This document shows positions 16,656 through 57,343 of a stretch of 64,000 bases of DNA, in pieces (the stretch's first letter is position 1; each line of letters starts with the position of its first letter). A program made the translations under genes and the position numbers. Source of the stretch: an uncultured bacterium (GTDB lineage: Bacteria > Verrucomicrobiota > Kiritimatiellia > CAIKKV01 > CAITUY01); NCBI GenBank assembly GCA_903895695.1, contig CAITUY010000085.1, positions 25,052 through 89,051 on the forward strand, read 5' to 3'. Under the pieces are notes generated by a model. The model was not told where the DNA came from and made no database searches. It saw only the letters and a program-made list of their open reading frames with translations.

Positions 16656-17131
16656 GGCGTGCTCCCCGATGCGGCACATTCGCCGGGCGTTTCGGTCGGC
16701 GGTCCGGCAATCTTGCGCATTAACGCCAGGAAGACGTCCTGTTCGCGGGTCGAGAGGGCGCCGAGCATGACGCTGCAGAAACGCTGGTGCATGCGCCGCA
16801 TGCGGGCGAAGTGCTGCCGGCCCCCGGCAGTCAGCCGCACGTGCACCGTGCGTCGGTCCTGATCCGAGCGCCGGCGGCCGACAAGTCCCTTGGCCTCCAG
16901 TCGGTCGATCAGGGCCGTCAGGCTGCTCATGCCGCATACCAGGGAACGCGCCAGCTCGCTCATCGTCCAGTCCTGCCGCTCCCCGAGCGCATGGATGACC
17001 CGGAATTCCTGGCGTGTCAGCGGGGCGTGATCGCGGCAGGCGGCTCGCTCCCGGTGCAACGTGCGCCGCGCGAACAGGGTCAGGTAGCGGTCGAGCTCGG
17101 CGGCCCTGGCGGAGATGTCGTTTGGCTTCAT
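16652..17131 (-). CDS. marR: MarR-family transcriptional regulator of the efflux operon
   Basis: Winged HTH: LTRQEFRVIHALGERQDWTMSELARSLVCGMSSLTALIDRLEAKGLVGRRRSDQDRRTVHVRLT. Confidence 0.8.
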   Translation of the reverse strand: MKPNDISARAAELDRYLTLFARRTLHRERAACRDHAPLTRQEFRVIHALGERQDWTMSELARSLVCGMSSLTALIDRLEAKGLVGRRRSDQDRRTVHVRLTAGGRQHFARMRRMHQRFCSVMLGALSTREQDVFLALMRKIAGPPTETPGECAASGSTP

Positions 17132-17210
17132 GGCGAATGCTTCTATATACGAATATTTCGTAATATGAATGAAGTGGCGGCGCGTGTCAACGGAAAGTTC
17201 TGCGGCGCCG

Positions 17211-17876
17211 TCAGGCGACAAGGTCGGCCAGCGTGAGTTCGGCGACGGTCGGGCGGATCAGGGCCGCGCGGCCGAGTTGGGCGGCCGGGAAACTCTGGGC
17301 CACGGCGATGCAGCGGATGCCGGCGGCGAGGGCGGCGTCGATGCCGTTGACGGCATCCTCGATTACGACGCACGCCGCGGGCGGCAGGTTCAGCGCGTGG
17401 GCCGCGGCGAGGAAGATGTCGGGCGCAGGTTTCTTGTGCTCCACCTTTTCGGCGGTGACGATCGCGTCCCACTCCCGGGGCGGGAGGCCGATCGCGTTCA
17501 GGTTGGCCTCAACCTTGATCCAGTCGGCGCTCGAGGCGACGGCCACGCGCAGGCAGGCAGCGAGGCAGCGGCGGACAAGGGCCACCGCGCCGGGGAATGC
17601 CTTGAGCCGGCCGGGGATCATCTGCAGGTAGAACTCGTACGTGCGCCGCTTGGCAGCCGGCAGGTCCAGGTTCAGGCCGTAACGTGCCGCGACCCCGCCC
17701 AGGTACCGGTCCTCGCCGGTGCCCACGAACGGCCGGAAATCCGCGGGCTGCGCGGTCACGCCCAGTTCCTTGAACATCGCGAGGGCGGCGTCGCAGATCA
17801 GGGGTTCGGAGTCGGTCAGTACCCCGTCCATGTCGAAGATGACCGCGCGCGTTCCGGACGTGGGGGAGGCTGTCAT
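17211..17876 (-). CDS. HAD-superfamily hydrolase (beta-phosphoglucomutase/phosphatase-like)
   Basis: DMDGVLTDSE motif I, S/T motif II, K..D motif IV (IEDAVNGIDAA). Confidence 0.8.
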   Translation of the reverse strand: MTASPTSGTRAVIFDMDGVLTDSEPLICDAALAMFKELGVTAQPADFRPFVGTGEDRYLGGVAARYGLNLDLPAAKRRTYEFYLQMIPGRLKAFPGAVALVRRCLAACLRVAVASSADWIKVEANLNAIGLPPREWDAIVTAEKVEHKKPAPDIFLAAAHALNLPPAACVVIEDAVNGIDAALAAGIRCIAVAQSFPAAQLGRAALIRPTVAELTLADLVA

Positions 17877-17919
17877 GGGGGCGGTTCTCGGTGCTCTGCC
17901 GTTCAGCCGGTCCGCCGGG

Positions 17920-18384
17920 TCAGCGTCCGTGCACGGCCAGATTGAGGAGCACGGCCCCGGTGGCGCCGACGAGCATGCCCGCCGCCACCTCGATGCGGGT
18001 GTGCCCGAGGAGCTCCTTCAGCTTCTGCTCCGACAGGTGATGGGCCTTGAAGAGCTCGTCGACGATCTGGTTGAGGAGCCGGGCCTGCTGCCCGGTGGCG
18101 CGGCGGACCGTGGACGCATCGAACATGACGATCAACGCCAGCGCCAGGGCGACGACGAACCCCGTGCTGCCGAACCCGTCGTTCAACCCCACCGACACGG
18201 CGAGACCGCTTACCATGGCCGAGTGCGCGCTCGGCATTCCCCCGAGGCTGGTCAGGTACTGGAAGTCGATCTTGCCGGTGCGGCGCAGGTTGCCGGCTGT
18301 CTTCAAGAGCCCGGCGGCCGTCCAGCCGATAACCGCTGACCAAAACGACACGTTCTTGAACATGTCTCCCACGGCGTAGTGCAT
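17920..18384 (-). CDS. Divergent PAP2 (acid phosphatase/YuiD-like) membrane protein
   Basis: GGMPSAHSAMVSGLA (PSxHS) motif of DUF212/divergent PAP2. Confidence 0.7.
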   Translation of the reverse strand: MHYAVGDMFKNVSFWSAVIGWTAAGLLKTAGNLRRTGKIDFQYLTSLGGMPSAHSAMVSGLAVSVGLNDGFGSTGFVVALALALIVMFDASTVRRATGQQARLLNQIVDELFKAHHLSEQKLKELLGHTRIEVAAGMLVGATGAVLLNLAVHGR

Positions 18385-18464
18385 GGCGCGGGATCATGGG
18401 GAATCGGTAGGGGTGGGTCAAACGAAAACGCAGAATCAGTGAACGGTGAACAGTCAACAGTGAA

Positions 18465-18612
18465 CAGTTTCCGAGAACCCGTCTGCCACAGGGAGCGGAG
18501 CAGCTTCCGGCTCCGGCCCTTCGATGGCGCTCAGGGCAGGCCGGCGCGGGAAGCCGCGTCGCTCCACAAGAGGCAGACGGGTTTCCGGAAAGCTCTAAGA
18601 GCCAGGAACCAA
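18465..18612. repeat. Copy A of a ~120-160-nt highly palindromic intergenic repeat family (REP/MITE-like), inverted relative to copies B and C
   Basis: Reverse complement reads GGCTCTTAGAGCTTTCCGGAAACCCGTCTGCCTCTTGTGGAGCGACGCGGCTTCCCGCGCCGGCCTGCCCTGAGCGCCATCGAAGGGCCGGAGCCGGAAGCTGCTCCGCTCCCTGTGGCAGACGGGTTCTCGGAAA; near-identical to 28476-28640 and 56120-56245. Confidence 0.8.
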
Positions 18613-18628
18613 GAACAGGAACCACCGA

Positions 18629-20032
18629 TCAGTACGCGTTCTTGCGGGCAAAGAACGTGCGCAGCAGGATCTTGAAATCGAATGAGAGCGACCAGTTCTC
18701 GAGGTAGTAAAGGTCGTACCGGATGCGATCTTCGATGCTCGTATTGCCGCGCAATCCGTTCACCTGCGCCCACCCGGTCATGCCGGGTTTGCATACGTGC
18801 CGCCACATGTAACGGCTGATATCCTCCTTGAACTGCTCGACGAAATGCGGCCGTTCGGGACGGGGCCCCACCAGGCTCATGTCGCCGGCAAGCACATTCC
18901 AGAGTTGCGGCAGCTCGTCGATGTTGTAGCGGCGGAGGAACGCTCCGATCCGCGTTCGGCGCGGGTCGTCCTTCACGGTCCAGACGGGGCCAGTCTCTTC
19001 TTCGGCGTTATCGACCATGGTGCGCAGTTTGTAGATCGTAAACGAGCGCCCGTTCTCGCCGCAGCGCTCCTGGCGGTAGAAGATCGGGCCCGGGGAACTG
19101 CGCCGGACGCAGGCGGCGGCCAGAAGAATGAGGGGCGATGCCACGGCGAGCCCGAACAGGGCGCCTACGATATCCTCGAGGCGTTTCAAGACGCGCTTCC
19201 AGAAATAGTCCAGGGGCCAGAGGCTGACGCCCAGCAGTGGGATGTCGTCGACGACGCGCATATCCATGCTGCCGGTCATAATGCGGAACATGTCCGGCAC
19301 CATGTTGAAAACGATGAGGTTGCGCTCGCAGGCGAGGATGATTTCCACGACACGCTGGTGCCCGAGCGTGCTGTCGGTTACGATCACCTGGTCGGCCGGG
19401 TGCGAGTCCAGGATGGACTCCAGGTCTTCGACGCGTCCACGAATCGCCTCGGCCGGCACGGCGGGATCGGCCGGGGTGGGCCCGGTGGCGACAAACCCCA
19501 CGACCCGCGAGCGCAGGCGCGGTTCGTCCTCCAGGCCGCGCTTGAGGTGGGCGGCAATGGAATCGGTGCCGACGATGAGCACGCGGTTATGGACGGAGGC
19601 CCGGCGGGCGTGTGCCACTTCGAGCCGGAACAACATGAAGCGCTCGATCAGCACCAGCAAGACGATCGTGAAGAAGGCGATGCCCACCGTGAGACGGGAG
19701 TAAGGCGGCTGGGTTCCCGCGGCGAAGGCCAGGGCCGTGGTAAGGAGAATGGCGATGCCGGTGGCCCGAACAAGCCGGGGAATCTTGTTGGCGAAGCCAC
19801 CGATCTGGGGGCGGATGTACAGCTCGAGCGCGCGATAGATGAACAGGAAGAGCAGCGTGGCGATCGCCGCGCCCTTTACGTACATGAGCCGCGGCGGGAT
19901 ACTGTCCACGGCGATCAGGTGACTATCGAACCGGATCCAGGTGGCGGCTAGGAAACCAATGAAGATCGCCGCGGCGTCGGCCAGCACAGCGATACCGCTG
20001 GCCAGAACATCCCAAGTATCTCTCGTGCGCAC
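18629..20032 (-). CDS. wbaP: Undecaprenyl-phosphate hexose-1-phosphate transferase (WbaP/EpsL-type polyprenyl glycosylphosphotransferase)
   Basis: N-terminal TM block, CoA-binding-like middle, C-terminal bacterial sugar transferase domain (PGMTGWAQVNGLRGNTSIEDRIRYDLYYLENWSLSFDFKIL). Confidence 0.85.
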   Translation of the reverse strand: MRTRDTWDVLASGIAVLADAAAIFIGFLAATWIRFDSHLIAVDSIPPRLMYVKGAAIATLLFLFIYRALELYIRPQIGGFANKIPRLVRATGIAILLTTALAFAAGTQPPYSRLTVGIAFFTIVLLVLIERFMLFRLEVAHARRASVHNRVLIVGTDSIAAHLKRGLEDEPRLRSRVVGFVATGPTPADPAVPAEAIRGRVEDLESILDSHPADQVIVTDSTLGHQRVVEIILACERNLIVFNMVPDMFRIMTGSMDMRVVDDIPLLGVSLWPLDYFWKRVLKRLEDIVGALFGLAVASPLILLAAACVRRSSPGPIFYRQERCGENGRSFTIYKLRTMVDNAEEETGPVWTVKDDPRRTRIGAFLRRYNIDELPQLWNVLAGDMSLVGPRPERPHFVEQFKEDISRYMWRHVCKPGMTGWAQVNGLRGNTSIEDRIRYDLYYLENWSLSFDFKILLRTFFARKNAY

Positions 20033-20089
20033 GCCGGGACTCTAGCGCACGCGGGGCGCGGGTGTCGAGGGGAGAGGGAGAAAACCTGC

Positions 20090-20926
20090 CTAGGTCCGAA
20101 TCCACAATTCGGGGCGTGACTCCAGGACTTTTAGGAAGGCGTCGATCACGGCGGGGGGGTGCTGAAACCCCCTGGTTTTCTCCAATTCGGCCAGAATCGT
20201 CGCCCGGGGAAGTTTCGTGCGGTAGGGCCGGTCCGAATTCATGGCGTCGAACATGTCGGCAACGGCAATGATGGACGCCTCGATCGGTATCTGCGACCCC
20301 TTGAGCCCTACGCCGTAGCCGGCGCCATCGTACCGTTCATGATGCAGAACCGCCGCCCGGACCTCATCGCGAAGGAAATCGAGAGACGAGAGTATGGTCG
20401 CCGTGCGGGCGGGGTGTTTCTTGAGGATTTCCCATTCCTCGCTCGTCAGCGGCCCGTTCTTATGCAAAATGGCGTCCGGTGTTTCGATCTTCCCCAGGTC
20501 GTGGAGAGCCGCCGCGCGGGACACAACGTTGACGCTTGTCGAACTCAGTCCCAGCATCTTCGCCAGTTCGACGGAAAGGCGCCTGACCTGCTCCGAGTGG
20601 CCGCGGGTATAGGGGTCCTTCGCTTCCACCGCCTCGACAAGCGCGGTCAGCATCCCGACGTGCGAATCCCGCAACGCTGCTTCCGACTTGGAAAGACGCG
20701 ATAGCGTCCGCGCCTGTTGCACCCACAGGTAGACGAGCAGGACCAGCATGACGGCCAACAGGACCTCGTCGGGGACATAAGCGGCATCCGGTGCGACTGC
20801 CGCGCTGACGAGCCGGTAACAGGTGAACGATGCCGCGAGGACAAGGATGAACCACTGGAACTGGGCCGTGACCAATCTCGTCTTGGGTGGTTGTTCCCGT
20901 GTCGCCATTTCCGCCGATTTTTCCAT
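20090..20926 (-). CDS. HD-GYP domain cyclic-di-GMP phosphodiesterase-like protein with N-terminal TM segments
   Basis: HSEQVRRLSVELAKMLGL...ALHDLGKI...HHERYDGAGYGVGLKG (HD...GYP motifs). Confidence 0.75.
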   Translation of the reverse strand: MEKSAEMATREQPPKTRLVTAQFQWFILVLAASFTCYRLVSAAVAPDAAYVPDEVLLAVMLVLLVYLWVQQARTLSRLSKSEAALRDSHVGMLTALVEAVEAKDPYTRGHSEQVRRLSVELAKMLGLSSTSVNVVSRAAALHDLGKIETPDAILHKNGPLTSEEWEILKKHPARTATILSSLDFLRDEVRAAVLHHERYDGAGYGVGLKGSQIPIEASIIAVADMFDAMNSDRPYRTKLPRATILAELEKTRGFQHPPAVIDAFLKVLESRPELWIRT

Positions 20927-21111
20927 GCCTCGGAACGCCTTCCTGATGCCCGTACACAGAGGGTAGAACGGCGGGATTTGGGAAGCAAGGCTGAACCGAA
21001 CCCGTGCCTTGGCTGCAGCGGAAAACGGCATAAATGGCGTATGGCGCAGTTGACAACGGCGGGACACAGCCATACCATTTGTCCTTTGTTGTCCAAACCG
21101 AATGGTGTCAG

Positions 21112-21813
21112 ATGCAGCTTGGCGTAAGAGATGTGGCTCGGATTCTGAATGTGTCCGAGAAGTCGATTTACCGATGGATTCAGCACGGGCAGTTGCCCGC
21201 TTACCGGGTCAACGAACAGTATCGGTTCAACCGATCGGAGCTCCTGGAGTGGGCCAATGCGCGCAAGATCAACGTCTCGGCCGAGATCTTCAAGGAGCCG
21301 GACACCACCACCGAGATGATGCCGGACCTGGCCGATGCGATCGAGGCCGGCGGCATTTTCTACCGGCTGGAGGGGCGGGATACCGAGTCGGCGCTCAAGG
21401 CGGTCGTGGGCGTGATGCACCTGCCCCAAGACGTCGACCGCGAGTTCCTCCTGCGCGTGCTGATGGCCCGCGAGTCCATGGCCTCGACCGGCATCGGCGA
21501 TGGCATAGCCATTCCACACGTCCGCAACCCGATCGTGCTGGCCGTCCACCAACCGACCATCTGTCTCTGTTTTCTGGAGCATCCCGTCGAATTCGGCGCG
21601 CTCGACGGCCAGCCCGTGAACACACTGTTCACCCTGATCAGTCCGACCGTTCGCGTGCACCTCTACCTCTTGTCTCGACTGGCGTTTGCCCTCCAGCAGC
21701 CGGGCTTCCGGGACGTGGTGCGGCGGCAGGCGCCGCGGGAGGAGATTGTGCCGGCATTACGGGCTGCTGAAGCGGCCGTGGCGCAGGCCAAGGCGGAGAA
21801 GGCGGCCGGGTGA
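21112..21813 (+). CDS. Transcriptional regulator: excisionase/MerR-like HTH fused to PTS EIIA(Ntr)-type phosphorylatable domain
   Basis: N-term MQLGVRDVARILNVSEKSIYRWIQHGQLPAYRVNEQYRFNRSELLEW (HTH_17). C-term LMARESMASTGIGDGIAIPHVRN matches the PtsN/EIIA-Ntr active-site His box. Stop overlaps GTG start of hyfB-1 (GTGA). Confidence 0.7.
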   Translation: MQLGVRDVARILNVSEKSIYRWIQHGQLPAYRVNEQYRFNRSELLEWANARKINVSAEIFKEPDTTTEMMPDLADAIEAGGIFYRLEGRDTESALKAVVGVMHLPQDVDREFLLRVLMARESMASTGIGDGIAIPHVRNPIVLAVHQPTICLCFLEHPVEFGALDGQPVNTLFTLISPTVRVHLYLLSRLAFALQQPGFRDVVRRQAPREEIVPALRAAEAAVAQAKAEKAAG

Positions 21814-23810
21814 GCGGCCTGCTGGTCAGCCTGATTCTGCTTCTAACCGCGTCGGCCCTGCCGCTGGCGGCGTGGCGGCGCCCGGCCCTGGCCTCGCGGC
21901 TTGGTTCCTGGGGCGGGGCCGCGGCGTGCGGCGTCGGCCTGGCTAGTTCGATCGCGGCGTTCGCCGGCAGCGTGACAGCCTCGCGCGCCTGGCCCTGGGT
22001 GACCCCGGTCGGCGGCGCGTTCAGCCTGGCGTTGGATCCGTTGAGCGCTTTCTTCCTGATCCCCATGTTCCTTGTCTGTGGACTCGGGGCCGTCTACGGC
22101 CGGGCCTATCTGGCCGGCGATGAAGGCCGTCTGGCGCTTGGTCCCTCCTGGTGTTTCTATAATCTCCTGACCGCCAGCATGATCGTCGTGCTTACCGCCT
22201 CCAACGCGTTGCTTTTCCTGGTGAGTTGGGAGGTGATGACGCTGGCGTCGTTTTTCCTGGTGACGTACGACCACGACCGCGCCGAGAGCCGTCTGGCTGG
22301 CCGTCTCTACCTCATTGCCGCGCATATCGGTACGGCATTTCTTGTCGTTTTCGTGCTGCTGGGCCGGCGTTACACGGGCACGCTGGACATGTCGCAATGG
22401 CCGGCGGCATTTGCCGGGATTCCGGCCGCGCGCCTGGGGCTGCTCTTCGTCTGCCTCGTGATCGGCTTTGGCACCAAAGCGGGCTTCATGCCGCTGCACG
22501 TCTGGCTGCCCGAGGCGCACCCGGCGGCTCCGAGCCATGTCTCGGCCGTGATGTCGGGTGTCATGATCAAGACCGGCATTTACGGGCTGCTGCGGTTCGG
22601 CACGATGCTGGGCACGCCGGCGCTCTGGTGGGGCGGCCTGCTCGTGGCCGTCGGCCTGGCGTCGTGCGTGTTCGGGATTCTGTTCGCCCTCGCGCAGCAG
22701 GATATCAAGCGGCAACTCGCGTATTCGAGCGTCGAGAACATGGGTATCGTTGCCTTGGCGCTCGGCGTCGCGTTGGTCGCCCGGGCACTGCAACTGCCGA
22801 CGGTCGCGCTGCTGGCTCTCGCGGCGGCCCTGCTGCACGTGCTGAACCATGCGGTCTTCAAGAGCCTGCTATTTTTTGGCGCCGGGGCGATTTACCGCGC
22901 CACGCACACCCGTAATCTCGATGCGCTGGGCGGGCTGCTTAAGCGCATGCCGCGGCTCGGGCTGGGCCTGATCGTCGGCGCGGCCGCCATCAGCGCCCTG
23001 CCTCCATTCAACGGGTTCGTGGGCGAATTCCTGCTCTACCGCGCTGCAGTGCTCGGCCTGAACTCCGACGCTGACGCCGGGATGATCCTGCTCGCGGCGA
23101 TCGGGGGCCTGGCCCTCACCGGGGGGCTGGCGGCTGCCTGTTTCACGCGTCTGGTCGGGGTGGCCCTGCTCGGGGAACCGCGCACGCCTGAAGCGGCGGC
23201 CGCCGTAGAGCCGGCCGGCGCCTTTCGGTGGCCGGTCACGATCCTGGCGGCGCTGTGCCTGGCGCTCGGAGTGCTGGGGCCATTTCTGGTTGTCCGCCTG
23301 GCGCCGCTCCTCTCCCTGCTGAGCGGCGATCCGCTGGCGAAGGTGTCGGGGTTGCTGGCCCCGGAAACCGGTCCGCTGACGGCCGTGACGCTCATGGCCT
23401 TGCTTGTCCTCGCGCTTGTGGTCATCGTGGCCTGGGCGCGGCACGGCTTGCTCCGCGGCCGCGACGTGCGCGAGGCCGGTACCTGGGATTGCGGCTATGC
23501 CCGCCCCACGGCCCGCATGCAGTACACGGCCACCTCGTTCGCACAGCCCCTCGTGGGGCTTTTCGTCCGGCTCCTGCGTAGCCGGCGCCGCTACGCCATC
23601 GCGCCTGGCCTGTTTCCCGCTTCCGCCTCGCTGAATGCCGAGACCCGCGACGTGGTGCGGGAACGCGTGTTCACGCCGGTGTTCCAGTTCGTCGACCGGT
23701 GGCTGTCGTTTCTGAAATGGCTCCAGTCTGGCCGTGTTCAGCTCTACATTCTCTACATCGTGATCACCCTGCTGGGGCTCTTGTTCTGGACTCTGAGGGG
23801 GGGCGCATGA
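21810..23810 (+). CDS. hyfB: Hyf/Mbh-type antiporter-like membrane subunit (HyfB/NuoL-like), cluster 1
   Basis: 666 aa polytopic protein; HVWLPEAHPAAPSHVSAVMSGVMIKTGIYG signature of the complex-I antiporter-like family; GTG start. Confidence 0.8.
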   Translation: MSGLLVSLILLLTASALPLAAWRRPALASRLGSWGGAAACGVGLASSIAAFAGSVTASRAWPWVTPVGGAFSLALDPLSAFFLIPMFLVCGLGAVYGRAYLAGDEGRLALGPSWCFYNLLTASMIVVLTASNALLFLVSWEVMTLASFFLVTYDHDRAESRLAGRLYLIAAHIGTAFLVVFVLLGRRYTGTLDMSQWPAAFAGIPAARLGLLFVCLVIGFGTKAGFMPLHVWLPEAHPAAPSHVSAVMSGVMIKTGIYGLLRFGTMLGTPALWWGGLLVAVGLASCVFGILFALAQQDIKRQLAYSSVENMGIVALALGVALVARALQLPTVALLALAAALLHVLNHAVFKSLLFFGAGAIYRATHTRNLDALGGLLKRMPRLGLGLIVGAAAISALPPFNGFVGEFLLYRAAVLGLNSDADAGMILLAAIGGLALTGGLAAACFTRLVGVALLGEPRTPEAAAAVEPAGAFRWPVTILAALCLALGVLGPFLVVRLAPLLSLLSGDPLAKVSGLLAPETGPLTAVTLMALLVLALVVIVAWARHGLLRGRDVREAGTWDCGYARPTARMQYTATSFAQPLVGLFVRLLRSRRRYAIAPGLFPASASLNAETRDVVRERVFTPVFQFVDRWLSFLKWLQSGRVQLYILYIVITLLGLLFWTLRGGA

Positions 23811-24718
23811 ACGGGCGCGGCTTGATCCATTACGCGCTGGCGCTGCTGCTGGCCCCGCTGCTGCTGGGCGTGATCAATCGCGTCAAGGCGGCCTTTGCCG
23901 GGCGCCGGGGCCAGCCGGTGCTGCAGCCCTACTACGACCTCGTCAAGCTGCTGCAGAAGGGCGCTGTCTACAGTCGGACCACCACGTGGGTCTTCCGGGC
24001 GGGCCCGGTCGTGACGCTTGCCGCACTGCTCGCGGCGCTGGCCCTGGTGCCGTTCGCGGGACAGGCCGGCCCGTTGTCGTTCCAGGGCGACGTGATCGTC
24101 TGTGTTTATCTGCTCGGACTGGCGCGCTTCTTCACAGTGCTGGCCGCGCTCGATACGGGGTCGGCCTTCGAGGGGATGGGGGCGAGCCGGGAAGTGCAGT
24201 TCTCGGCGCTGGCCGAGCCGGCATTGCTCGTCGGGCTGGTCGTGCTCGGACGGCAGACGAGCACGGCGTCGCTGGGTCCCATGTTTGCGGCTGTGGGGCC
24301 GGCGCTGTGGATGACCGCCGGTACGACGCTGGCCCTGCTTGCGGTGGCCTTCTTCATCGTGCTGTTGTCCGAGAACTCGCGCGTGCCGTTCGACGATCCC
24401 AATACGCATCTCGAGCTGACGATGATCCACGAGGTCATGGTGCTCGACCACGGCGGGCCGGACTTCGGACTGATTTTGTACGGCTCGGCGCTCAAGCTTT
24501 GGATCTTCAGCGCCTTTGTCGCGGGACTGGTCGTGCCGTACCGCTGCGGCAACGGCTGGGTCGACACGGCGGCGGCCGTCGGCGCGCTGCTCCTGACGGC
24601 GTTGGTGGTCGGCACGGTGGAATCGTGCATGGCGCGGTTGCGTCTGCTGCGCGTGCCGCACTTGCTGATCAGCGCGACCGTGGCGGCCGTGCTGGCATTT
24701 TTGTTGATGACGAGGTGA
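23807..24718 (+). CDS. hyfC: HyfC/HycD (NuoH-like) membrane subunit, cluster 1
   Basis: LQPYYDLVKLLQKG...ENSRVPFDDPNTHLELTMIHEVMVLDHGGP; ATGA overlap with hyfB-1. Confidence 0.8.
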   Translation: MNGRGLIHYALALLLAPLLLGVINRVKAAFAGRRGQPVLQPYYDLVKLLQKGAVYSRTTTWVFRAGPVVTLAALLAALALVPFAGQAGPLSFQGDVIVCVYLLGLARFFTVLAALDTGSAFEGMGASREVQFSALAEPALLVGLVVLGRQTSTASLGPMFAAVGPALWMTAGTTLALLAVAFFIVLLSENSRVPFDDPNTHLELTMIHEVMVLDHGGPDFGLILYGSALKLWIFSAFVAGLVVPYRCGNGWVDTAAAVGALLLTALVVGTVESCMARLRLLRVPHLLISATVAAVLAFLLMTR

Positions 24719-24722
24719 ACCG

Positions 24723-25388
24723 GTGACGTCGTGGCTTGATATTGTGATGGTGCTGCTGTTCCTGACCGACCTGGGCCTGCTCGGGTCGAGCCGGCTGGGC
24801 GTCTACGTGCGCCTGGCGGCCGTGCAGGGCGTGCTCGTGGGGGTGCTGCCCCTGCTGGTGCAGCACACGCTGGCGCTTGAAACCGTCGCCGTTGCCGCGG
24901 GCACGATCGCCGTCAAGAGCGTGTTGTTCCCCTGGCTCATGGCGCGGATCATGCGCGGCTTCGATGACCGTCGCGAACGGCAGCCGTACCTGGGTTACAC
25001 GGTGTCGCTCGTGTTGGGCGTGCTGGCGGTGGGCGCGGCCCTGTGGATCAGTCGGCGCCTGCCCGAGTCCGGGGCCGGTGGCCTGGCGGCCCACGGCTTC
25101 CTGATGCCCGCGGCCTTGTTCTCCATATTCACCGGCCTCATCCTGCTGGTCACGCGGCGCAAGGCCGTGACCCAGGTGCTGGGCTATCTTGTGATGGAAA
25201 ACGGCATCTACGTGGCCGGCATGGTACTGGTGCCGGAGTCGACGTTCCTGGTGGAGTTGGGGGTGCTGCTGGACTTGTTCGTGGGCGTGTTCCTCATGGG
25301 GATCATGATTTTCCACATCCAGCGTGAATTCGATCATATCGATACGGACCAACTGGCGGCCTTGAAGGATTGGGGGGGCGAGCCGTGA
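24723..25388 (+). CDS. hyfE: HyfE-like small membrane subunit, cluster 1
   Basis: 221 aa, ~6 TM; LGYLVMENGIYVAG motif shared with paralog at 32680; GTG start. Confidence 0.7.
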   Translation: MTSWLDIVMVLLFLTDLGLLGSSRLGVYVRLAAVQGVLVGVLPLLVQHTLALETVAVAAGTIAVKSVLFPWLMARIMRGFDDRRERQPYLGYTVSLVLGVLAVGAALWISRRLPESGAGGLAAHGFLMPAALFSIFTGLILLVTRRKAVTQVLGYLVMENGIYVAGMVLVPESTFLVELGVLLDLFVGVFLMGIMIFHIQREFDHIDTDQLAALKDWGGEP

Positions 25389-25404
25389 GGCGGCGCCGAC
25401 GCTC

Positions 25405-26880
25405 ATGCTGAGAGAACTGGTCATGTTGCCGGCCGGGGCCGGATTGATGGCGTTCTTCGTGCGTTCGCACGGGTGGCGTCGCGGCCTGCTCGTGGCGGCT
25501 GCCGTCGCGCACCTGGGCCTCACCGTCCGGGCGTGGGTCGCGCCGCCGGCCGTCGGCGGCTTCTGGCTGGGCCTGGACCCGCTCGGGCTCCTGTTCCTGA
25601 CCATCGTCAGCGTGCTGTTCATGGCCTGCGCCGTGTATGCCGTCGGCTACCTGGGCCGCGAGGACCACCAGCAGGAAAAGGCCGATCTTGAGGAGGGCCT
25701 GCTGTTCAGCAACCAGCCCGAGGCCGTGTTTACCGGATGCATGCTGCTGTTCCTGTCCATGATGTCGCTCGTGTGCCTGAGCCGGCATCTGGGCCTGCTC
25801 TGGGTGGCGATCGAGGCCACCACGCTCACGAGTGCGCCGCTGATCTACTACCACCGGCATCACCGCTCGCTCGAGGCGGCTTGGAAGTACATGCTGATTT
25901 GTTCGGTCGGCATCGGGTTGGCCTTGCTCGGCAACTTCTTCCTGGCCGTGGCCTTCACGCCCGCGGGCGGGGTGACGCCGGCGCTTGGACTGGACGGTCT
26001 GCTGACTGCCACGGTGGGGACGCGCGGCGTGTGGCTGAAGGTGGCCTTCGTGTTCATCGTCGTGGGCTACGGCACGAAGATGGGCCTGGCACCCATGCAC
26101 ACGTGGCTGCCCGATGCCCACAGCGAGTCGCCGTCCGTGGTTTCGGCCCTGCTGTCGGGGGCGCTGCTGAATTGCGCCTTCCTGGGCATTTTGCGCGTAT
26201 GGCAGGTGCTCGTGCACACGGGTCAGGCCGATTTCGCCCAACCCATCATGATCGGGTTCGGCCTGGCGTCGATGGCGGTCGCCGCTGTCTTCATCCTGGG
26301 TCAACCCGACTATAAGCGCCTGCTCGCCTATTCCAGCGTGGAGCACATGGGTATCCTGGCGCTCGGTGTCGGCCTCGGCGGCGCCGCCGTGTTCGGTAGC
26401 CTGCTGCACGCCGTGAACCACTCGTTGACGAAGTGCATGCTGTTCCTCACAGCCGGCAACATACTGGCCGTATACCGTACCAAGGAGTGCGGCAAGGCGC
26501 GCGGATTGCTGCGCGTGATGCCGGTCACGGGCGTGCTCTGGATCGCGGGCTTCCTGGCCATCACCGGCACGCCGCCGTTCGGCGTGTTCCTGAGCAAATT
26601 CATCGTGCTGAGCGCCGCGTTCAACAGCGGCCATCCGGTCATCGGCGTCGTCGCGCTGGCCCTGCTGGCCGTGATCTTCGTGGGCCTCTGCGTGATCGTG
26701 CTGCGCATGGGGCAGGGCGAACGCAGCGATGCGGTGCCGGAGGCGGTGCGCGAGCCCCTGTGGTCGATGATTCCGCCCGTGCTGCTCGGACTGGCCGTGC
26801 TTGCGCTGGGCCTGTGGTTGCCGAAGCCGCTGGAGACGGTCCTGCAGGCCGCCGCCAGGAGTTTGGGAGGCGGGCTGTAA
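25405..26880 (+). CDS. hyfF: HyfF (NuoN/M-like) antiporter-like membrane subunit, cluster 1
   Basis: HTWLPDAHSESPSVVSALLSGALLNCAFLG; 491 aa. Confidence 0.8.
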   Translation: MLRELVMLPAGAGLMAFFVRSHGWRRGLLVAAAVAHLGLTVRAWVAPPAVGGFWLGLDPLGLLFLTIVSVLFMACAVYAVGYLGREDHQQEKADLEEGLLFSNQPEAVFTGCMLLFLSMMSLVCLSRHLGLLWVAIEATTLTSAPLIYYHRHHRSLEAAWKYMLICSVGIGLALLGNFFLAVAFTPAGGVTPALGLDGLLTATVGTRGVWLKVAFVFIVVGYGTKMGLAPMHTWLPDAHSESPSVVSALLSGALLNCAFLGILRVWQVLVHTGQADFAQPIMIGFGLASMAVAAVFILGQPDYKRLLAYSSVEHMGILALGVGLGGAAVFGSLLHAVNHSLTKCMLFLTAGNILAVYRTKECGKARGLLRVMPVTGVLWIAGFLAITGTPPFGVFLSKFIVLSAAFNSGHPVIGVVALALLAVIFVGLCVIVLRMGQGERSDAVPEAVREPLWSMIPPVLLGLAVLALGLWLPKPLETVLQAAARSLGGGL

Positions 26881-26882
26881 TT

Positions 26883-28469
26883 ATGAGCACCCCCCGAACT
26901 CTGCGCATGGGCGAAGCCGTTCCCTTGGCCGAGATTCCGCGTCTCGACACCGCTGGATTCCGCGCCCGGGTGACCGACGTGGCCTGGCGTCTGCGCCTTG
27001 TCGCCCTCTTCGGTCGCCCCTCCTACGCCTTGACGGCTTCGGAGGGCAGGCCCTCGTCCTCTTCGGTGGCTGCGGAGGGCCAGTCTGCGGTCGAACCCGG
27101 GGCGCCGGTGACGCTCACTGCGATCTTTGCGGATGACCGCAACGGCCAGATGCAGGCGTTTTCGACGGACGTGGGGGCGTCGTACCCGGCGCTGACGCCC
27201 GACTGCCCCCAGGCCAACGGATTCGAGCGCGAAATCGCCGAGCAGTGGGGTGTGCGGCCTGAAGGGCACCCGTGGCTCAAGCCGCTCCGCTATCACCGTT
27301 CCGCTGTGCCGGGCCGTGACGCGTGGGGCCGCGCCCCAGGGACGGCGATAGAGCCGTCCGTGACCGATTTCTTCCGCGTGGAAGGCGAGGCCGTCCACGA
27401 GGTAGCGGTGGGCCCCGTGCATGCCGGCGTCATTGAGCCCGGCCATTTTCGGTTCCAGTGTTTTGGCGAGACCGTGCTGCACCTCGAGATCGCACTGGGT
27501 TACCAGCATCGCGGCGTGGAGCAGGCGCTGCGCCACGGCGACGCGCGGCGCGTGATGCCTTACATGGAAACGCTGGCCGGCGACACGACCATCGGCCACG
27601 CCACGGCCTATGCCCAGGCCCTCGAGTCCGCCGCCGGCGCCCGGGTGTCCGCGCGGGCCCATGCCCTGCGGGCCGTGGCCTTGGAACTCGAACGCCTGGC
27701 CAACCACACCGGCGATCTCGGCGCGCTGGCGGGCGACGTAGCCTTCCTGCCCACGATGTCCTACTGCGGCCGGATCCGCGGCGATTTTCTGAACATGACG
27801 GCCCTGATCTGCGGCAACCGGTTCGGGCGCGGACTGGTGCGGCCGGGCGGCGTGCGTTGGGATCTCGACCCGGCCCGCAAAGACGAACTGTTGTCGCGCC
27901 TGGCGGCCGCCGAGGCTGACACCAAGAGCGCGGTCGAGCTGATGTTCGACTCGCCGTCGGTGCTGGCCAGGTTCGAGGAAACCGGCACCGTGTCCTTCGA
28001 CGAGTGCGAGTCGCTCGGGCTCGTCGGGCCTGCAGCGCGAGCCTGCGGCGCCGAACGCGACGTGCGACAGGATTTCCCCGGCGGGATGTACCGGTTTCAG
28101 CAGATCCCGGTGGGAACGTGGAGCACCGGCGACGTATTTGGCCGCGCCTTCGTGCGCTGGCTGGAAATCCAGCGTTCCATCGCGTTCATTCGCGAGGTGC
28201 TGCAGACGCTGCCGGAGGGCGACGTGCTGGCGCCCTGCGGCCCGCTGGCGCCGGACAGCCTCGTGGTCTCCCTGGTCGAGGGGTGGCGGGGCGAGGTCGC
28301 CCACGTGCTGATCACCGGGGCGCAAGGACAGCGCGAGTTCTACAAGATTGTGGACCCTTCGTTCCATAACTGGATGGGCCTGGCGATCGCGATGCGAGAC
28401 CAGGCGATCTCCGATTTCCCGATCTGCAACAAGAGCTTCAACCTTTCGTACTGCGGGCACGATTTGTGA
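26883..28469 (+). CDS. Group-4 hydrogenase large-subunit homolog (fused NuoC-NuoD/HycE-like) lacking both NiFe-binding CxxC motifs (Ehr-like), cluster 1
   Basis: NuoC-like N-domain plus NuoD/HycE-like domain (VGPVHAGVIEPGHFRF). At the position of the paralog's N-terminal ERMCGVCSLSHG this protein has METLAGDTTIGHA. C-terminus CNKSFNLSYCGHDL replaces NKSFELCYSCTDR. Confidence 0.75.
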   Translation: MSTPRTLRMGEAVPLAEIPRLDTAGFRARVTDVAWRLRLVALFGRPSYALTASEGRPSSSSVAAEGQSAVEPGAPVTLTAIFADDRNGQMQAFSTDVGASYPALTPDCPQANGFEREIAEQWGVRPEGHPWLKPLRYHRSAVPGRDAWGRAPGTAIEPSVTDFFRVEGEAVHEVAVGPVHAGVIEPGHFRFQCFGETVLHLEIALGYQHRGVEQALRHGDARRVMPYMETLAGDTTIGHATAYAQALESAAGARVSARAHALRAVALELERLANHTGDLGALAGDVAFLPTMSYCGRIRGDFLNMTALICGNRFGRGLVRPGGVRWDLDPARKDELLSRLAAAEADTKSAVELMFDSPSVLARFEETGTVSFDECESLGLVGPAARACGAERDVRQDFPGGMYRFQQIPVGTWSTGDVFGRAFVRWLEIQRSIAFIREVLQTLPEGDVLAPCGPLAPDSLVVSLVEGWRGEVAHVLITGAQGQREFYKIVDPSFHNWMGLAIAMRDQAISDFPICNKSFNLSYCGHDL

Positions 28470-28475
28470 AGAGGG

Positions 28476-28640
28476 TCATTAGAGGCTATCCGAAAACTTG
28501 TCTGCCTCTTCTGGGAGCGGCGCGGCTTCCCGCGCCGGCCTGCCCTGAGCGCCATCGAAGGGCCGGAGCCGGAAGCGGCTCCGCTCCATGTGGCAAAGGG
28601 GTTTTCGGACAGGCTCTTATTGGACATTGGAGATTGGGCA
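28476..28640. repeat. Copy B of the palindromic intergenic repeat family, between the large- and small-subunit genes of cluster 1
   Basis: AGAGGCTATCCGAAAACTTGTCTGCCTCTTCTGGGAGCGGCGCGGCTTCCCGCGCCGGCCTGCCCTGAGCGCCATCGAAGGGCCGGAGCCGGAAGCGGCTCCGCTCCATGTGGCAAAGGGGTTTTCGGACAGGCTCTTATTGG; nested hairpins CGGCGCG/CGCGCCG and GGAGCCG/CGGCTCC. Confidence 0.8.
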
Positions 28641-28659
28641 TTAGTCATTGGGGCCAGGT

Positions 28660-29433
28660 ATGTTGAGTGTCATCAAAGCGCGGGCGAAGCAGAAGTATCG
28701 CACGAGCCGGTACCCGGCCGAGGCGCCGGTGATGCCGGATCGTTTCCAGGGACTGCCCGAGGTGAAGCCGGACGCCTGCGGCGCGGACTGCCAGGCGGGT
28801 TGCGTGCAGGCGTGTCCCGTGGGCGCCGTCTCGCGCGGGGGGGGCCGGCTGGCCGTCGACCTGGGGCGTTGCCTGTTCTGCGGCGAATGCGAGCGCGCCT
28901 GCCCGCACGGTTGCATTCGGTTTACCCGCGATCACGCGCTGGCGGCCCGATCCCGCGAGGCGTTTGTGCGTGACGGCGGGCCCAAGCCGCTGGCCGCCGC
29001 GCTCGACGGCCGCCTGCGAAAACTGTACGGCCGGTCCCTCAAGCTGCGCCAGGTCAGCGCGGGCGGGTGCAACGCCTGCGAGGCGGACTGCAACGTGCTC
29101 GGCACGCTCGTCTTCGACTTGGGCCGCTTCGGCATCCAGTTCGTCGCGTCGCCGCGGCACGCCGACGGGCTTCTCATTACCGGGCCGGTGACGAAGAACA
29201 TGGAGCTGGCCCTGCGCAAGACTTACGACGCCGTGCCCGAGCCGCGCATCGTCATCGCGGTCGGCGCCTGCGCGATCGCCGGCGGTCCCTACATCGACCA
29301 TGATGAGGTTCGCAATGGCGCCGCGAGCGTGGTGCCGGTCGACCTCTACGTGCCGGGCTGCCCGCCCAATCCCTGGACCATCCTCGACGGCCTCCTGCGC
29401 CTGCTTGGCCGGATCCCAGATCACGCCGGGTGA
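28660..29433 (+). CDS. Fusion of 2x[4Fe-4S] ferredoxin-like domain (HyfH/NuoI-like) and hydrogenase small subunit (HyfI/HycG/NuoB-like), cluster 1
   Basis: N-term CGADCQAGCVQACP (unusual Cx3Cx3Cx3CP) and canonical CLFCGECERACP. C-term NuoB-like with proximal-cluster Cys GGCNACE...VGACAIAGG...VPGCPP. ATG 28660 preferred over TTG 28648. Confidence 0.75.
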   Translation: MLSVIKARAKQKYRTSRYPAEAPVMPDRFQGLPEVKPDACGADCQAGCVQACPVGAVSRGGGRLAVDLGRCLFCGECERACPHGCIRFTRDHALAARSREAFVRDGGPKPLAAALDGRLRKLYGRSLKLRQVSAGGCNACEADCNVLGTLVFDLGRFGIQFVASPRHADGLLITGPVTKNMELALRKTYDAVPEPRIVIAVGACAIAGGPYIDHDEVRNGAASVVPVDLYVPGCPPNPWTILDGLLRLLGRIPDHAG

Positions 29434-29569
29434 TAGTGACGACGGAACTCGGTCTTCCAAGCTGCAGACTCGTGTTTCGGCCTTTTCGAGCCGCGTGCAC
29501 CGGTACGAGAACGTTGTCGCCCCGTCTTGCTCTTCGTCCTAGCTGAGGATCTGGTCATCTGCTGCGTCC

Positions 29570-29598
29570 TTGTAGCTTGCACGTCAGTCGGGTATATA
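29570..29598 (+). promoter_or_regulatory. Candidate sigma70-like promoter for the second hyf-like cluster in a 230-nt lower-GC, G/T-rich spacer
   Basis: TTGTAG (29570-29575) - 17 nt - TATATA (29593-29598), ~65 nt upstream of ATG 29665; the only AT-rich patch between the two clusters. Confidence 0.35.
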
Positions 29599-29664
29599 TG
29601 GTTTGTTTGACTTTGCTTGGTTGTGTCTGTCGGGTGTTGAGTTGGCTGCGGTTTGGCAGGACTG

Positions 29665-31728
29665 ATGACGACGATGGCGACAAGCGTCCGCGCAAGCGGC
29701 GATGGAGATAAACTGACCGCGCATCCCCTGGTCGACAAGGGTGCGGGACCGGTTGTGCGGTGTGCGGTCTGGTTGGGCCACTGGCTTACGCTGGCCGGTG
29801 CGTTGGCCGGCGCCGCGGTGGCCCTGCGCGTCCTGGGCGGTTCCGCGCCCGTTCACGTGGCGCTTCCGAAACTCTTCCCATTCGCTGAGATGTCTCTCCA
29901 CGTGGACGGGCTTTCCGCGTTCTTTCTCCTGGTCGTTTGCGTGGTCGCCGTCGCGGCCTCGGTCTATGGCCCTTCCTACCTCGGCGCGCACGCCAAGGCG
30001 CCGCTGGTCCAAACCCTGGCCTTCATGGTGTTTGTCCCCTGCATGGCCCTGGTATGCTGCGCCGGCGACGCGCTCACGTTTCTGCTGGCCTGGGAGGGCA
30101 TGACGCTCGCGAGCTACGTGCTCGTCGTGAGCGATACGGCGGACGCGGAAAAGACGCGCGCGGGACTGCTTTACCTGATCATGGCGCATGCGGGCACCGC
30201 GGCGCTGCTCGCCGTGTTCCTCACGCTCACCGTGCACGCGCAGGCGTTCGACTTCCCCGCGTTGCGCGACGCGGCGGGCCGGTTGGACGGCTCCACGCGC
30301 ACGGTGCTGTTCATGCTGGCGCTGCTCGGTTTCGGGGCCAAGGCCGGCGTCGTGCCGCTGCACATCTGGCTCCCGGCGGCGCACCCGGCCGCGCCCAGCC
30401 ACGTGTCGGCCCTGATGTCGGGTGCGATGCTCAAGGTCGCCATCTACGGCATCTTCCGTTTCGGGTTTGCGCTGCTGGCCTCGACGACCGGCCCGCTGCC
30501 CCCGTCGTGGGGCTGGACCGTCCTATTCCTGGGCACCGTTTCCGCCGTGTTCGGTGTCTTGCTAGCCCTCCAGCAACATGACCTGAAGCGTCTACTCGCG
30601 TATCACAGCGTGGAGAACATCGGCATCATTCTTATCGGCGCGGGGCTGGCTATGTTGCTGGGCGGCAGACCCGGCACGGAGCGGCTGGCCACGCTGGCCT
30701 TGGCGGCCTCGCTCCTGCACACCTTGAATCACGCGGCGTTCAAGGGCTTGTTGTTCCTGGGCGCCGGCAGCGTCGTCAGCCGCACGTTCACCCGCAACAT
30801 GGAGGAGTTCGGCGGCCTGGCCCGCCGCATGCCCTGGACGGCCTGGCTGTTCCTGCTCGGGTCGGTCGCCATATCGGCGCTGCCGCCGCTAAACGGGTTT
30901 GTCAGCGAGTGGATGACGTTCCAGGCCCTGGTACTGGGCGGCGCCAGAATGGGCGGCGCGTCGGGCCTGCTCGCCGGAATTGCGGCCTCGATGCTCGCGC
31001 TGACCGGCGGCCTGGCGGCCGCCTGCTTTGCGAAGGCCTTCGGCGTTACCTTCCTCGGCCGGCCGCGCTCGGCGCACGCCGAGCACGCGACTGAATCGCC
31101 GGCGCCGATGATCGCCGGCATGCTCCTGCTGGCGGGCGCCTGCGTGGCACTCGGCCTGGTGCCGGGGTATGCCATGCGCCTGCTGGACCGGCCCACCGCT
31201 GAAGTTATGGGCGGCCTGAGCGCCAGCGCGGTCGTCGCTGCCCGGGGGCCCCTCGTCCTTTCCGCCGGCGGCGGGCCGGCGGGCCTGGAGGCGACCTCGA
31301 TCTCGGTGACCCTGGCCGCATCGGTGTTCCTGTTGATCGCCGTGGCCGTGTGGTTTGTGCGGAGTTGGCCACGGAAGGCGCCGCGCCGGCTTGCGCCGAC
31401 CTGGACGTGCGGGATGACCCCCACCAGCCGCTTCGACTATACGGCGACTGCGTTCGCCAAGCCGTTGCGGCTCATCTTTGCCGCCGTTTACCGGCCGCAC
31501 CGGGCGATCGCGCGGGAGCCTGGTCCTTCGCCCTACGTGCCCCGGCGGTTGGTCTACTCGGGCGAGGTTGTCGATCTCACGGAGACGGTCTTCTACGCCC
31601 GGTTCAAACACGCGGTGACCGCCGTGTCCCAAGCCATCCGCGCCCGGAGCACCGGGCGGATCCACGGGTACATCGCCTACGTGCTGGCCACGCTGGTGAT
31701 TGTGCTACTTCTCTTCGGGAAAGGGTGA
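29665..31728 (+). CDS. hyfB: HyfB/NuoL-like antiporter-like subunit, cluster 2
   Basis: Paralog of 21810-23810 (HIWLPAAHPAAPSHVSALMSGAMLKVAIYG); first ATG at 29665. Confidence 0.8.
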   Translation: MTTMATSVRASGDGDKLTAHPLVDKGAGPVVRCAVWLGHWLTLAGALAGAAVALRVLGGSAPVHVALPKLFPFAEMSLHVDGLSAFFLLVVCVVAVAASVYGPSYLGAHAKAPLVQTLAFMVFVPCMALVCCAGDALTFLLAWEGMTLASYVLVVSDTADAEKTRAGLLYLIMAHAGTAALLAVFLTLTVHAQAFDFPALRDAAGRLDGSTRTVLFMLALLGFGAKAGVVPLHIWLPAAHPAAPSHVSALMSGAMLKVAIYGIFRFGFALLASTTGPLPPSWGWTVLFLGTVSAVFGVLLALQQHDLKRLLAYHSVENIGIILIGAGLAMLLGGRPGTERLATLALAASLLHTLNHAAFKGLLFLGAGSVVSRTFTRNMEEFGGLARRMPWTAWLFLLGSVAISALPPLNGFVSEWMTFQALVLGGARMGGASGLLAGIAASMLALTGGLAAACFAKAFGVTFLGRPRSAHAEHATESPAPMIAGMLLLAGACVALGLVPGYAMRLLDRPTAEVMGGLSASAVVAARGPLVLSAGGGPAGLEATSISVTLAASVFLLIAVAVWFVRSWPRKAPRRLAPTWTCGMTPTSRFDYTATAFAKPLRLIFAAVYRPHRAIAREPGPSPYVPRRLVYSGEVVDLTETVFYARFKHAVTAVSQAIRARSTGRIHGYIAYVLATLVIVLLLFGKG

Positions 31729-31732
31729 GTCC

Positions 31733-36426: not shown

Positions 36427-36446
36427 GAACACCGTAGGAACCCGGC

Positions 36447-55187: not shown

Positions 55188-55354
55188 AGGGGTGCCGAGA
55201 CTGTAGGCTATAGGCTGTAGACCTTAGGAATACTGCAGCTTTTGGCTCTGGTGCTCGGCAAGGCATTTTCGACCTTCAGTTCCTGGATCTGCCCCGTTCG
55301 GCCCTACAGCCTACAGCCTAAGCTGCTACAGTCTTGGTGTTCACTGTTCACTGG
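55179..55354. repeat. Long imperfect palindromic element built from CTGTAGGCT/AGCCTACAG units, bounded by inverted CAGTGAA motifs
   Basis: Left arm GACTGTAGGCTATAGGCTGTAGACC (55199-55223) pairs with right arm GGCCCTACAGCCTACAGCCTAAGCTGCTACAGTC (55301-55334); GCAGCTT/AAGCTGC inner pairing; outer ACAGTGAA ... TTCACTGTTCACTG. Confidence 0.6.
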
Positions 55355-56119: not shown

Positions 56120-56245
56120 CGGGTGCGAAGTCCGTCCTTTCTGGTCTGCCTCTTCTGGGAGCGGCGCGACTTCCCGCGCCGGCCGGAGCCGGAAGCGGCT
56201 CCGCTCCTTGTGGCAGGATGGTTTTCGGAGGCCTCTAGGACAACA
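56120..56245. repeat. Copy C (shorter variant) of the palindromic intergenic repeat family
   Basis: GTCTGCCTCTTCTGGGAGCGGCGCGACTTCCCGCGCCGGCCGGAGCCGGAAGCGGCTCCGCTCCTTGTGGCAGGATGGTTTTCGGAGGCCTC; lacks the central 26-nt segment present in copies A and B. Confidence 0.75.
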
Positions 56246-56735: not shown

Positions 56736-56820
56736 TTTCTTCCTTGCGTAGAATCACTCGAAAGCCCTGTGAATACAGGCTCTAATCGATGTTCAGCGCC
56801 TGCGGCGGTCCGCCTGCACT

Positions 56821-57342: not shown

Positions 57343-57343
57343 A

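Follow-up and report, generated by a model that had tools for sequence, protein, structure and literature searches.

Analysis of a 64-kb stretch of DNA from an uncultured bacterium (positions 25,052 to 89,051 of contig CAITUY010000085.1; the whole stretch is referred to below as the window) revealed a family of intergenic palindromic repeats with three copies, which is likely to be an element of the REPIN/BIME type (REP doublet forming hairpin/bacterial interspersed mosaic element), that is, a non-autonomous doublet of two inverted units resembling repetitive extragenic palindromes (REP) and mobilised by a REP-associated tyrosine transposase (RAYT). REPINs consist of two inverted REPs and a spacer and can form hairpins; they flank RAYT genes, and the products of these genes are believed to mobilise them (PMC3337134, PMC3116915). 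An earlier note on this DNA had proposed a REP-like or MITE-like (miniature inverted-repeat transposable element), possibly mobile family. This proposal gained support from the REP-type doublet, the spread of copies in metagenomes, the flanking of RAYT genes by the same units in relatives and an orthologous empty site, and the REPIN reading is favoured because anatomy, spread, transposase association in relatives and a recent gain all fit the definition. By analogy, mobilisation is probably due to a RAYT: a Y1/HUH transposase of this kind would be encoded elsewhere in the genome, would recognise the 5' tag and hairpin of the units on single-stranded DNA, and would move or copy the doublet into intergenic DNA. 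This mechanism is proposed on the basis of what is known of TnpA-REP (PMC3479197) and, more generally, of IS200/IS605 transposition.

The three copies were located at or very near the positions given in the earlier note (18465-18612, inverted; 28476-28640; 56120-56245), and the family was borne out by alignment and shuffle controls. The first copy, a full form at 18468-18603, lies on the minus strand, which reads unit A, a 23-nt spacer and unit B; its outermost B-side terminus is missing. Unit B of this copy occupies 18492-18516 on the plus strand (GGAGCGGAGCAGCTTCCGGCTCCGG as read on that strand), and unit A occupies 18541-18565 on the minus strand (GGAGCGACGCGGCTTCCCGCGCCGG). The second copy, also a full form, lies on the plus strand at 28480-28619 and comprises a terminus and left arm (28480-28506), unit A (28514-28538, plus strand; GGAGCGGCGCGGCTTCCCGCGCCGG), the spacer (28539-28562), unit B (28563-28587, minus strand; GGAGCGGAGCCGCTTCCGGCTCCGG), and a right arm and terminus (28592-28619). 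The third copy, a short form on the plus strand at 56144-56239, has unit A (56158-56182) abutting unit B (56183-56207) with a spacer of 0 nt, the proximal part only of the left arm (56144-56150), and a right arm at 56212-56239. The copies align across the entire core, the 18k copy being inverted with respect to the other two (96 nt, 94% complementary). The 56k copy is shorter, as had been described; the missing part of its core is 23 nt of central spacer, not 26 nt, and the distal left arm is absent as well. The terminal inverted repeats (CCGAAAAC/GTTTTCGG and TCTGCC/GGCAGA) and the two internal GC hairpins previously assigned to each copy were present. Two 27-nt arm/core motifs each occurred three times in the window, with 0.00 occurrences expected from 100 shuffles (one scan gave a fourth, cross-arm match); the unit template GGAGCGGnnnnnCTTCnnnnnCCGG, with up to two mismatches, matched six times against 0.61 expected by chance, and the outer arm five times against 0.07. 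The copies are thus not expected from chance, and the repeat family is real. The six units of the window form three inverted A> <B pairs, all of them tagged GGAG.

Each REP unit measures 25 nt and follows the template GGAG-CGGnnnnG-CTTC-CnnnnCCG-G, with a 5' tag (GGAG), an 8-bp stem, a 4-nt CTTC loop and a 3' G; in size and form it agrees with REPs, which are imperfect palindromes of 20-40 nt that form stem-loops, and its stem shows covariation. The three basal pairs of the stem (CGG/CCG) are fixed, and the upper five vary with compensatory changes, the stem of unit A being CGGCGCGG (CGCGG) and that of unit B CGGAGCCG (AGCCG). In the window doublets, A faces B in an inverted, tail-to-tail arrangement with 0 or 23 nt between them, and the doublet is flanked on the outside by inverted arms (TAGAGCCTATCCGAAAACCTGTCTGCC and its complement), each about 26 nt long. 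The two halves of the core are nearly complementary (the left half matches the right with three mismatches), and each half is itself a hairpin. As DNA, a single unit folds at -11 to -12.8 kcal/mol and the full copies at -43 to -47 kcal/mol; folding energies of the full copies as RNA were -77 to -84 kcal/mol, whichever strand was used (z -4.9 to -8.1). For the short 56k copy, the fold of the whole element was not significant (z about -1 as RNA and -2.1 as DNA). The RNAalifold consensus of 12 composite copies contains an outer stem and two unit hairpins, which together make a three-way junction, and single-sequence folds favour one long hairpin with A paired to B. Because the paired units sit inside outer inverted arms, one strand can, according to these folding models, form either the long hairpin or the three-way junction with two small hairpins, and the description of the copies as nested hairpins was accurate.

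Neither of the outcomes that the earlier note named as refuting its reading was seen: copies were also found beyond the window, and they were not bound to one gene family. In a metagenome collection, the exact 22-mer of unit B was present in 82 stretches with unrelated flanks, most of them from a few JGI projects (contig names beginning with Ga0118677, Ga0316226/Ga0316229, Ga0163144, Ga0073936, Ga0182021 and TBL_comb47_HYPO). About 25 non-redundant metagenome copies share the architecture seen in the window, with both arms present in 11 of them, and the element termini are sharply defined across unrelated loci. Three spacer classes were recognised among the metagenome copies, namely none, the 23-nt spacer CCTGCCCTGAGCGCCATCGAAGGG and an alternative of 30 nt; in the lineage of the window the doublet is always A facing B, with 0, 23 or 30 nt between. 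Further contigs carry B and A in reverse order, about 17 nt apart and without arms. In one metagenome locus (L057, 415-488) the 23-nt central spacer is inverted relative to units A and B, which suggests flipping by recombination between the inverted arms. Several short-read contigs stop inside or beside the element (at the 18k site, and two at the 56k site), behaviour typical of short-read assembly at multi-copy repeats. Neither the plasmid nor the phage DNA collection contained a match to the element. At the gathering score, Rfam 15 recognised tRNA-Pro alone in the window, with no match to the element; at a permissive threshold, the region of the 28k copy gave chance microRNA matches only, far below threshold.

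The hairpins of these loci showed a conserved foot below a variable upper stem. Among hairpins of the form CGGn5-n4-n5CCG, 155 were tagged GGAG, and 144 of the 155 had the CTTC loop; the stems AGCCG, CGCGG, AACGG, ACGCG, CGTGG and AACGC were seen, each with its matching 3' half. Choice of the loci through unit B biases the counts of B; no such selection acted on A or the other stems. The second position of the tag was G (GGAG) in 162 of 167 units, and the five units with GTAG were all in loci outside the window. In a covariation test of 28 distinct units, 93.8% of the cells were paired and both sides had changed in five of the eight pairs. The covariation score was 0.433 compared to 0.141 in shuffles, none of 500 shuffles scored as high, and slid controls gave 31-51% paired.

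A search for a cognate TnpA(REP), which the earlier note had recommended, led to a divergent Y1/HUH gene of the RAYT type that is flanked by units of this family, in related contigs only. A motif scan for HUH followed by Y..NP gave no candidate in the 64-kb window and two in related loci (L036 and L045). The gene in L036, of the Y1_Tnp family (Pfam, 33.3 bits) and about 250 nt from a half element, was rejected as evidence of association: the half copy stands alone, nothing lies upstream, and the protein is a long form with a C-terminal extension. In L045, a RAYT-like pseudogene with an internal stop codon has three units upstream, three in-frame inside it and four downstream. A search with the L045 protein, from which the insertion had been removed, retrieved 78 proteins, many named by JGI as 'REP element-mobilizing transposase RayT', and NCBI names place some of the 78 homologues in metagenome-assembled genomes (MAGs) of Lentisphaerae and Verrucomicrobia. 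P0002, an intact homologue, is recorded on seven contigs. In the three that were read (L091-L093), unit A precedes the gene by 57 nt, the coding sequence contains an in-frame A/B doublet, and a further pair of units lies 5 nt past the stop codon. In the homologue P0022 of a Lentisphaerae MAG (L094), the flanking units have a GGAGCGG...CCGG foot with AT-richer stems and GTGA-type loops. Because the units flanking P0002 and P0022 share this foot and differ above it, tag and stem base travel with the RAYT-like proteins of this clade, and drift is confined to the loop and the upper part of the stem. The clade retains the HUH motif (D-H-L-H; DHLHLLW) and the catalytic tyrosine motif (F-Y-I-A-E-N-P; FYIAENPVR). 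In NCBIfam, the clade is matched best by REP_Tyr_transpos (E 1e-11 to 3e-16); its sole PDB match is 4ER8, the TnpA-REP of Escherichia coli, over nearly the full length (E 2e-7). We infer, by analogy with these relatives, that a RAYT of this clade would be present in the genome of the window and would catalyse movement of the element.

The in-frame REP units of the RAYT-like genes (2822-2880 in L091, also in L092 and L093, and about 2030-2115 in L045) were observed in one and the same loop between the HUH and tyrosine motifs in P0002, P0001, P0010 and L045. The peptides that they encode include GAARLPAPG and GAGSGSAP. In P0010, a different repeat-derived peptide is found at the N-terminus, in the loop and at the C-terminus.

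Comparison of orthologous sites revealed differences in presence and absence between close relatives at the 18k and 28k sites, as is expected of mobile REPINs. At the 18k site, the spacer between a sugar transferase gene and a DUF212 gene was compared with loci found through near-identical DUF212 proteins from other samples. This spacer is 45 nt long and has no repeats in L102 (sugar transferase identity 78%), 51 nt, likewise without repeats, in L095/L096 (88%), and 104 nt, with six TCACYGY heptamers and no element, in L099/L101 (84%); in the window (100%) it is 244 nt long and contains heptamers, the element and further heptamers. This series of 45/51, 104 and 244 nt shows that the short spacer is the older state and that the heptamers and the element arrived separately, and by this comparison the element is a recent gain at this site. 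Relative to L095, the gained block covers 18441-18633 (193 nt: heptamer array, element and second heptamer array), and its ends are ambiguous by 6 nt owing to a direct repeat at its borders (ATCAGT at 18435-18440 and 18628-18633; ACTGAT on the gene strand). The contig L002, in which the element is missing upstream of DUF212, was rejected as an empty site, since it has a different gene across the DUF212 spacer and is otherwise 100% identical to the window. L002 matches the window perfectly (100%, 1596 nt) up to the element edge and then passes into another gene fragment through a similar GGTTCC heptamer array (L002 1-232, against 18469 onward of the window), either as a rearrangement in the population or as an assembly chimera. 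At the 28k site, the relative L098 carries the element. In L097, positions 175-269 (equivalent to 28470-28659 of the window) form a 95-nt spacer with GGTGGAN heptamers and a GTAG-tagged hairpin, GTAGGGGCGTCGCTTGCCGACGCCC, and no element; because L097 bears other repeats where the window bears the element, the hyfG-hyfI junction is a hot spot of repeat turnover.

The closest counterparts of the element are the REPINs and RAYTs of Pseudomonas fluorescens SBW25 (PMC3116915, PMC3337134), with which it shares inverted short palindromic units, a variable spacer, a hairpin formed by the whole element and an intergenic location. Both systems also have several spacer-length classes, both doublet configurations, presence/absence differences between close relatives and a gene for a short HUH/Tyr transposase with units of the same family on its flanks, here in relatives. 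Unlike SBW25 REPINs, which never mix REP groups (PMC3337134), the present doublets have halves with different stems, A and B; they also differ in the GGAG tag, the additional outer arms of about 26 nt, the uncultured host from the Planctomycetes-Verrucomicrobia-Chlamydiae (PVC) superphylum, the repeated in-frame presence of units in the transposase reading frame and the fact that the transposase was not seen in the window's own 64 kb. Di Nocera et al. (2013; PMC3733652) describe a GTAG-tagged REP super-family of 20-40 nt stem-loops with a conserved terminal tetranucleotide and frequent RAYT association, and report it in the PVC superphylum, including Verrucomicrobia. The five related units outside the window carry GTAG as in that super-family; the window units, in contrast, are tagged GGAG, neither GTAG nor CGTC, and that paper on the GTAG and CGTC super-families contains no mention of GGAG. 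The element resembles the E. coli BIMEs and TnpA-REP (PDB 4ER8; PMC3479197) in being a mosaic of REP variants in alternating orientation with few linker sequences; the TnpA-REP enzyme family recognises a hairpin and a 5' tetranucleotide, and 4ER8 was the only structure matching the associated clade. It differs from them in that the repeats have no sequence similarity to BIMEs, the protein similarity is remote, and the outer arms have no BIME counterpart.

Several observations weigh against the REPIN/RAYT reading. The unit tag is GGAG and not the canonical GT[AG]G, and the halves of the doublet are not identical. A collection of species-representative genomes yielded the 27-nt arm motif in one MAG contig only (L001). 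The 64-kb window has no RAYT gene, so that the cognate enzyme is deduced from related organisms, and the RAYT-flanking examples (L045 and L091) are on contigs with armless doublets, from relatives and not from the same lineage. The REP_Tyr_transpos scores of the clade (45-60 bits) are under the equivalog cut-off of 80 bits. No variation was seen at the 56k copy among the four further contigs covering that site, two of which end inside the element. For the 28k site, the same-protein look-up gave one other contig, and its genes are likewise 190 nt apart, a comparison of spacing only. Finally, heptamer arrays form part of the 193-nt block acquired at the 18k site, and a 6-nt direct repeat bounds it, which misfits a simple Y1/HUH mechanism; to our knowledge, a flanking direct repeat of 6 nt is not a product of IS200/IS605-type single-strand transposition. 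This was the sole filled-versus-empty comparison available for target-site duplication, the repeat bounding heptamers and element together, and no consistent duplication was seen at other copies.

The alternatives to a REPIN moved by a RAYT of a known kind were weighed against the same data. It is doubtful, though conceivable, that these repeats belong to a distinct GGAG-tagged PVC REP/RAYT system with traits unreported for its Pseudomonas and enterobacterial counterparts: doublets of two different covarying stems, which favour the three-way junction over the simple hairpin; additional outer arms; repeated in-frame insertion of units into one loop of the transposase; and an apparent preference for insertion next to heptamer arrays that closely precede start codons and are subject to turnover among close relatives.

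A classical MITE would explain the outer arms of about 26 nt as the terminal inverted repeats of a deleted insertion sequence (IS) on which a DDE transposase acts in trans (for example one of the IS630/Tc1-like type, with insertion at TA), and the inner hairpins would be cargo. Terminal inverted repeats of about 26 nt are indeed present, the arms consistently end in TAGAGCC...GGCTCTA, many copies are bordered by T, TA or TTA, and a 6-nt direct repeat bounds the gained 18k block. It is the inner units, however, that form the conserved and covarying part, and they are found armless at many loci and around RAYT genes. In the window, one of the arms is truncated in two copies out of three. The 18k direct repeat bounds heptamers plus element, not the element alone, the plasmid and phage records hold nothing similar, and no pair of TAGAGCCTATCCGAAAAC arms bounding a longer element or parent IS was found in about 470 kb of related loci and the window, a limited search space. 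Because the inner units are conserved and covary, the arms are often truncated and a parent IS was not seen, a DDE-type MITE is unlikely. The element is also like ERIC and Correia/NEMIS repeats (enterobacterial repetitive intergenic consensus; Neisseria miniature insertion sequences) in being an imperfect palindrome of roughly 120-150 nt, intergenic or within operons, with long terminal inverted repeats; it differs in its construction from RAYT-type REP units, which those repeats lack. A duplicated TA target, as found with Correia elements, was not seen for the window element.

It is just as improbable that the repeats are a host cis-regulatory RNA element (a terminator, attenuator, mRNA stabiliser or processing site) held by selection and not mobile DNA. 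Such a role would suit the very stable RNA folds, the position of all three copies between same-direction genes and the presence of one copy within an operon-like cluster, and E. coli REPs affect mRNA decay and termination (PMC3733652). The neighbouring genes are unrelated, however, and the element is absent at the same site in close relatives and in a paralogous gene cluster. The terminator function suggested in the earlier note found no support, because no T-run follows the hairpin (the T4 run of the element is part of a paired arm) and a terminator scan of 17000-30000, a range that includes the 18k and 28k copies, had no hit at either of them. Moreover, no Rfam family matched, and the hairpin covaries also in units within coding sequence. 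A purely regulatory origin is unlikely in view of the unrelated neighbouring genes, the lack of the element in close relatives, and the absence of both a T-run and an Rfam match; secondary co-option at single sites may nevertheless have taken place.

Spread by recombination, through illegitimate or homologous exchange between heptamer-sharing intergenic regions or through gene conversion, with a merely historical transposase link, is kept as a minor rival because the 6-nt repeat and the co-gained heptamers misfit the simple Y1/HUH version, but is very unlikely: the gained 18k block does include a heptamer array at either side of the element and terminates in a short direct repeat, L002 is identical to the window up to the element edge and then joins other DNA with a similar GGTTCC heptamer array, and the L057 spacer is inverted, whereas most metagenome copies lack adjoining heptamer arrays, the element ends are sharply defined across unrelated loci, and L002 may be an assembly chimera.

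The genes around the copies were identified from open reading frames guided by G+C content at third codon positions, together with Pfam; the G+C content of the window is 65%. The 18k copy lies between the sugar transferase gene (18629-20032, minus strand) and the DUF212 gene (17920-18384, minus strand). The 28k copy lies between a Complex1_49kDa/HyfG-like gene, which ends at 28469, and an Oxidored_q6/HyfI-like gene (28660-29433, plus strand), which confirms the placement of one copy inside a hyf-like cluster between the large- and small-subunit genes. The 56k copy lies between a family 2 glycosyltransferase (GT2) gene (55412-56113, plus strand) and tRNA-Pro (56659-56735). Of the two settings that had been proposed, between convergent or same-direction gene ends, the same-direction setting held at all three sites and the convergent one at none. 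For the metagenome copies, the orientation with respect to neighbouring genes gave a mixed picture, based on crude calls from third-position G+C that also miscalled genes of the window. Two tandem paralogous hydrogenase-4/Mrp-like clusters were observed (21810-29433 and 29653-37256), the element being present in the first only; in the second, the large-/small-subunit junction has just 20 nt. Because the 28k copy is inside the first cluster, it would be part of the hyf-like mRNA if the cluster is transcribed as one unit, and in that case it may affect the stability or processing of the operon mRNA. Organism-named homologues of the adjacent sugar transferase (62-64% identity) come from MAGs of Lentisphaerota, Lentisphaerae, Verrucomicrobia and Spartobacteria, and from these names and those found in the RAYT clade, not from a phylogeny, the host appears to be an uncultured PVC bacterium, probably of the Lentisphaerota.

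Downstream of the 56k copy, a genomic island was observed at tRNA-Pro(CGG), spanning 56659-63436, where the 3' part of the tRNA (56686-56723) is copied exactly (38 nt) at 63399-63436. A tyrosine integrase of the island (61756-63246, minus strand) adjoins the tRNA repeat at 63399-63436, and among the cargo are a toxin-antitoxin pair resembling AbiEii/AbiEi (60063-61654) and a protein with a caspase domain (57598-58395).

Two of the three window elements abut heptamer arrays. A CAGTGAA-like array of about 4.6 units (18437-18468) abuts the 18k copy and is found without the element in the relatives L099 and L101, a second short array (CCAGGAA/CCAAGAA; 18603-18622) lies on the opposite side of that copy, and an ATTGGAC-like array of about 4.7 units (28619-28651) lies between the 28k copy and the HyfI-like gene, whose start codon is at 28660. 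The possibility that the arrays are part of the element was rejected, since most metagenome copies lack them and L099/L101 have an array alone. Intergenic heptamer arrays were also observed at 55303-55353 of the window, at 1514-1552 and about 2655-2700 of L045, in L006 and L082, and at about 1097-1140 of L099. The array units vary by site (CAGTGAA, ATTGGAC, CCTACAG, TGTTCAC, TGACCAA and others), and the arrays often reach a start codon and are gained or lost between close relatives. In the spacer between a lipid A acyltransferase gene and the GT2 gene, the arrays CTGTAGG (three units, 55201-55221) and CCTACAG (two to three units, 55303-55323) are mutual reverse complements and bracket about 80 nt. 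The heptamer arrays resemble the STRR (short tandemly repeated repetitive) sequences of cyanobacteria. They also resemble the TAACTGA repeats of Beggiatoaceae (PMC4679880). In the literature that could be searched, no description of heptamer arrays of PVC bacteria was found.

Taken as a repeat family, the element is new but of a well-known kind, and the current understanding of REP elements is unchanged by it; its distinguishing features are the GGAG tag, the A/B hetero-doublets, the outer arms, the units inside the transposase reading frame and the heptamer arrays. With it, the known range of REPIN/RAYT-type repeats comes to include an uncultured PVC lineage from fresh water. The unit template (GGAG + CGG-N5 / N5'-CCG + CTTC loop) can be used for annotation, for explaining contig breaks in MAGs and for finding the cognate transposase. 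The series of states at the 18k site (no repeats, heptamers only, heptamers plus element) offers a rare direct view of how intergenic repeats accumulate, and the copy in the hydrogenase-4/Mrp-like cluster provides a natural test of the effect of a hairpin on operon expression. If the link with heptamer arrays is true, such a system could rewire translation-initiation regions.

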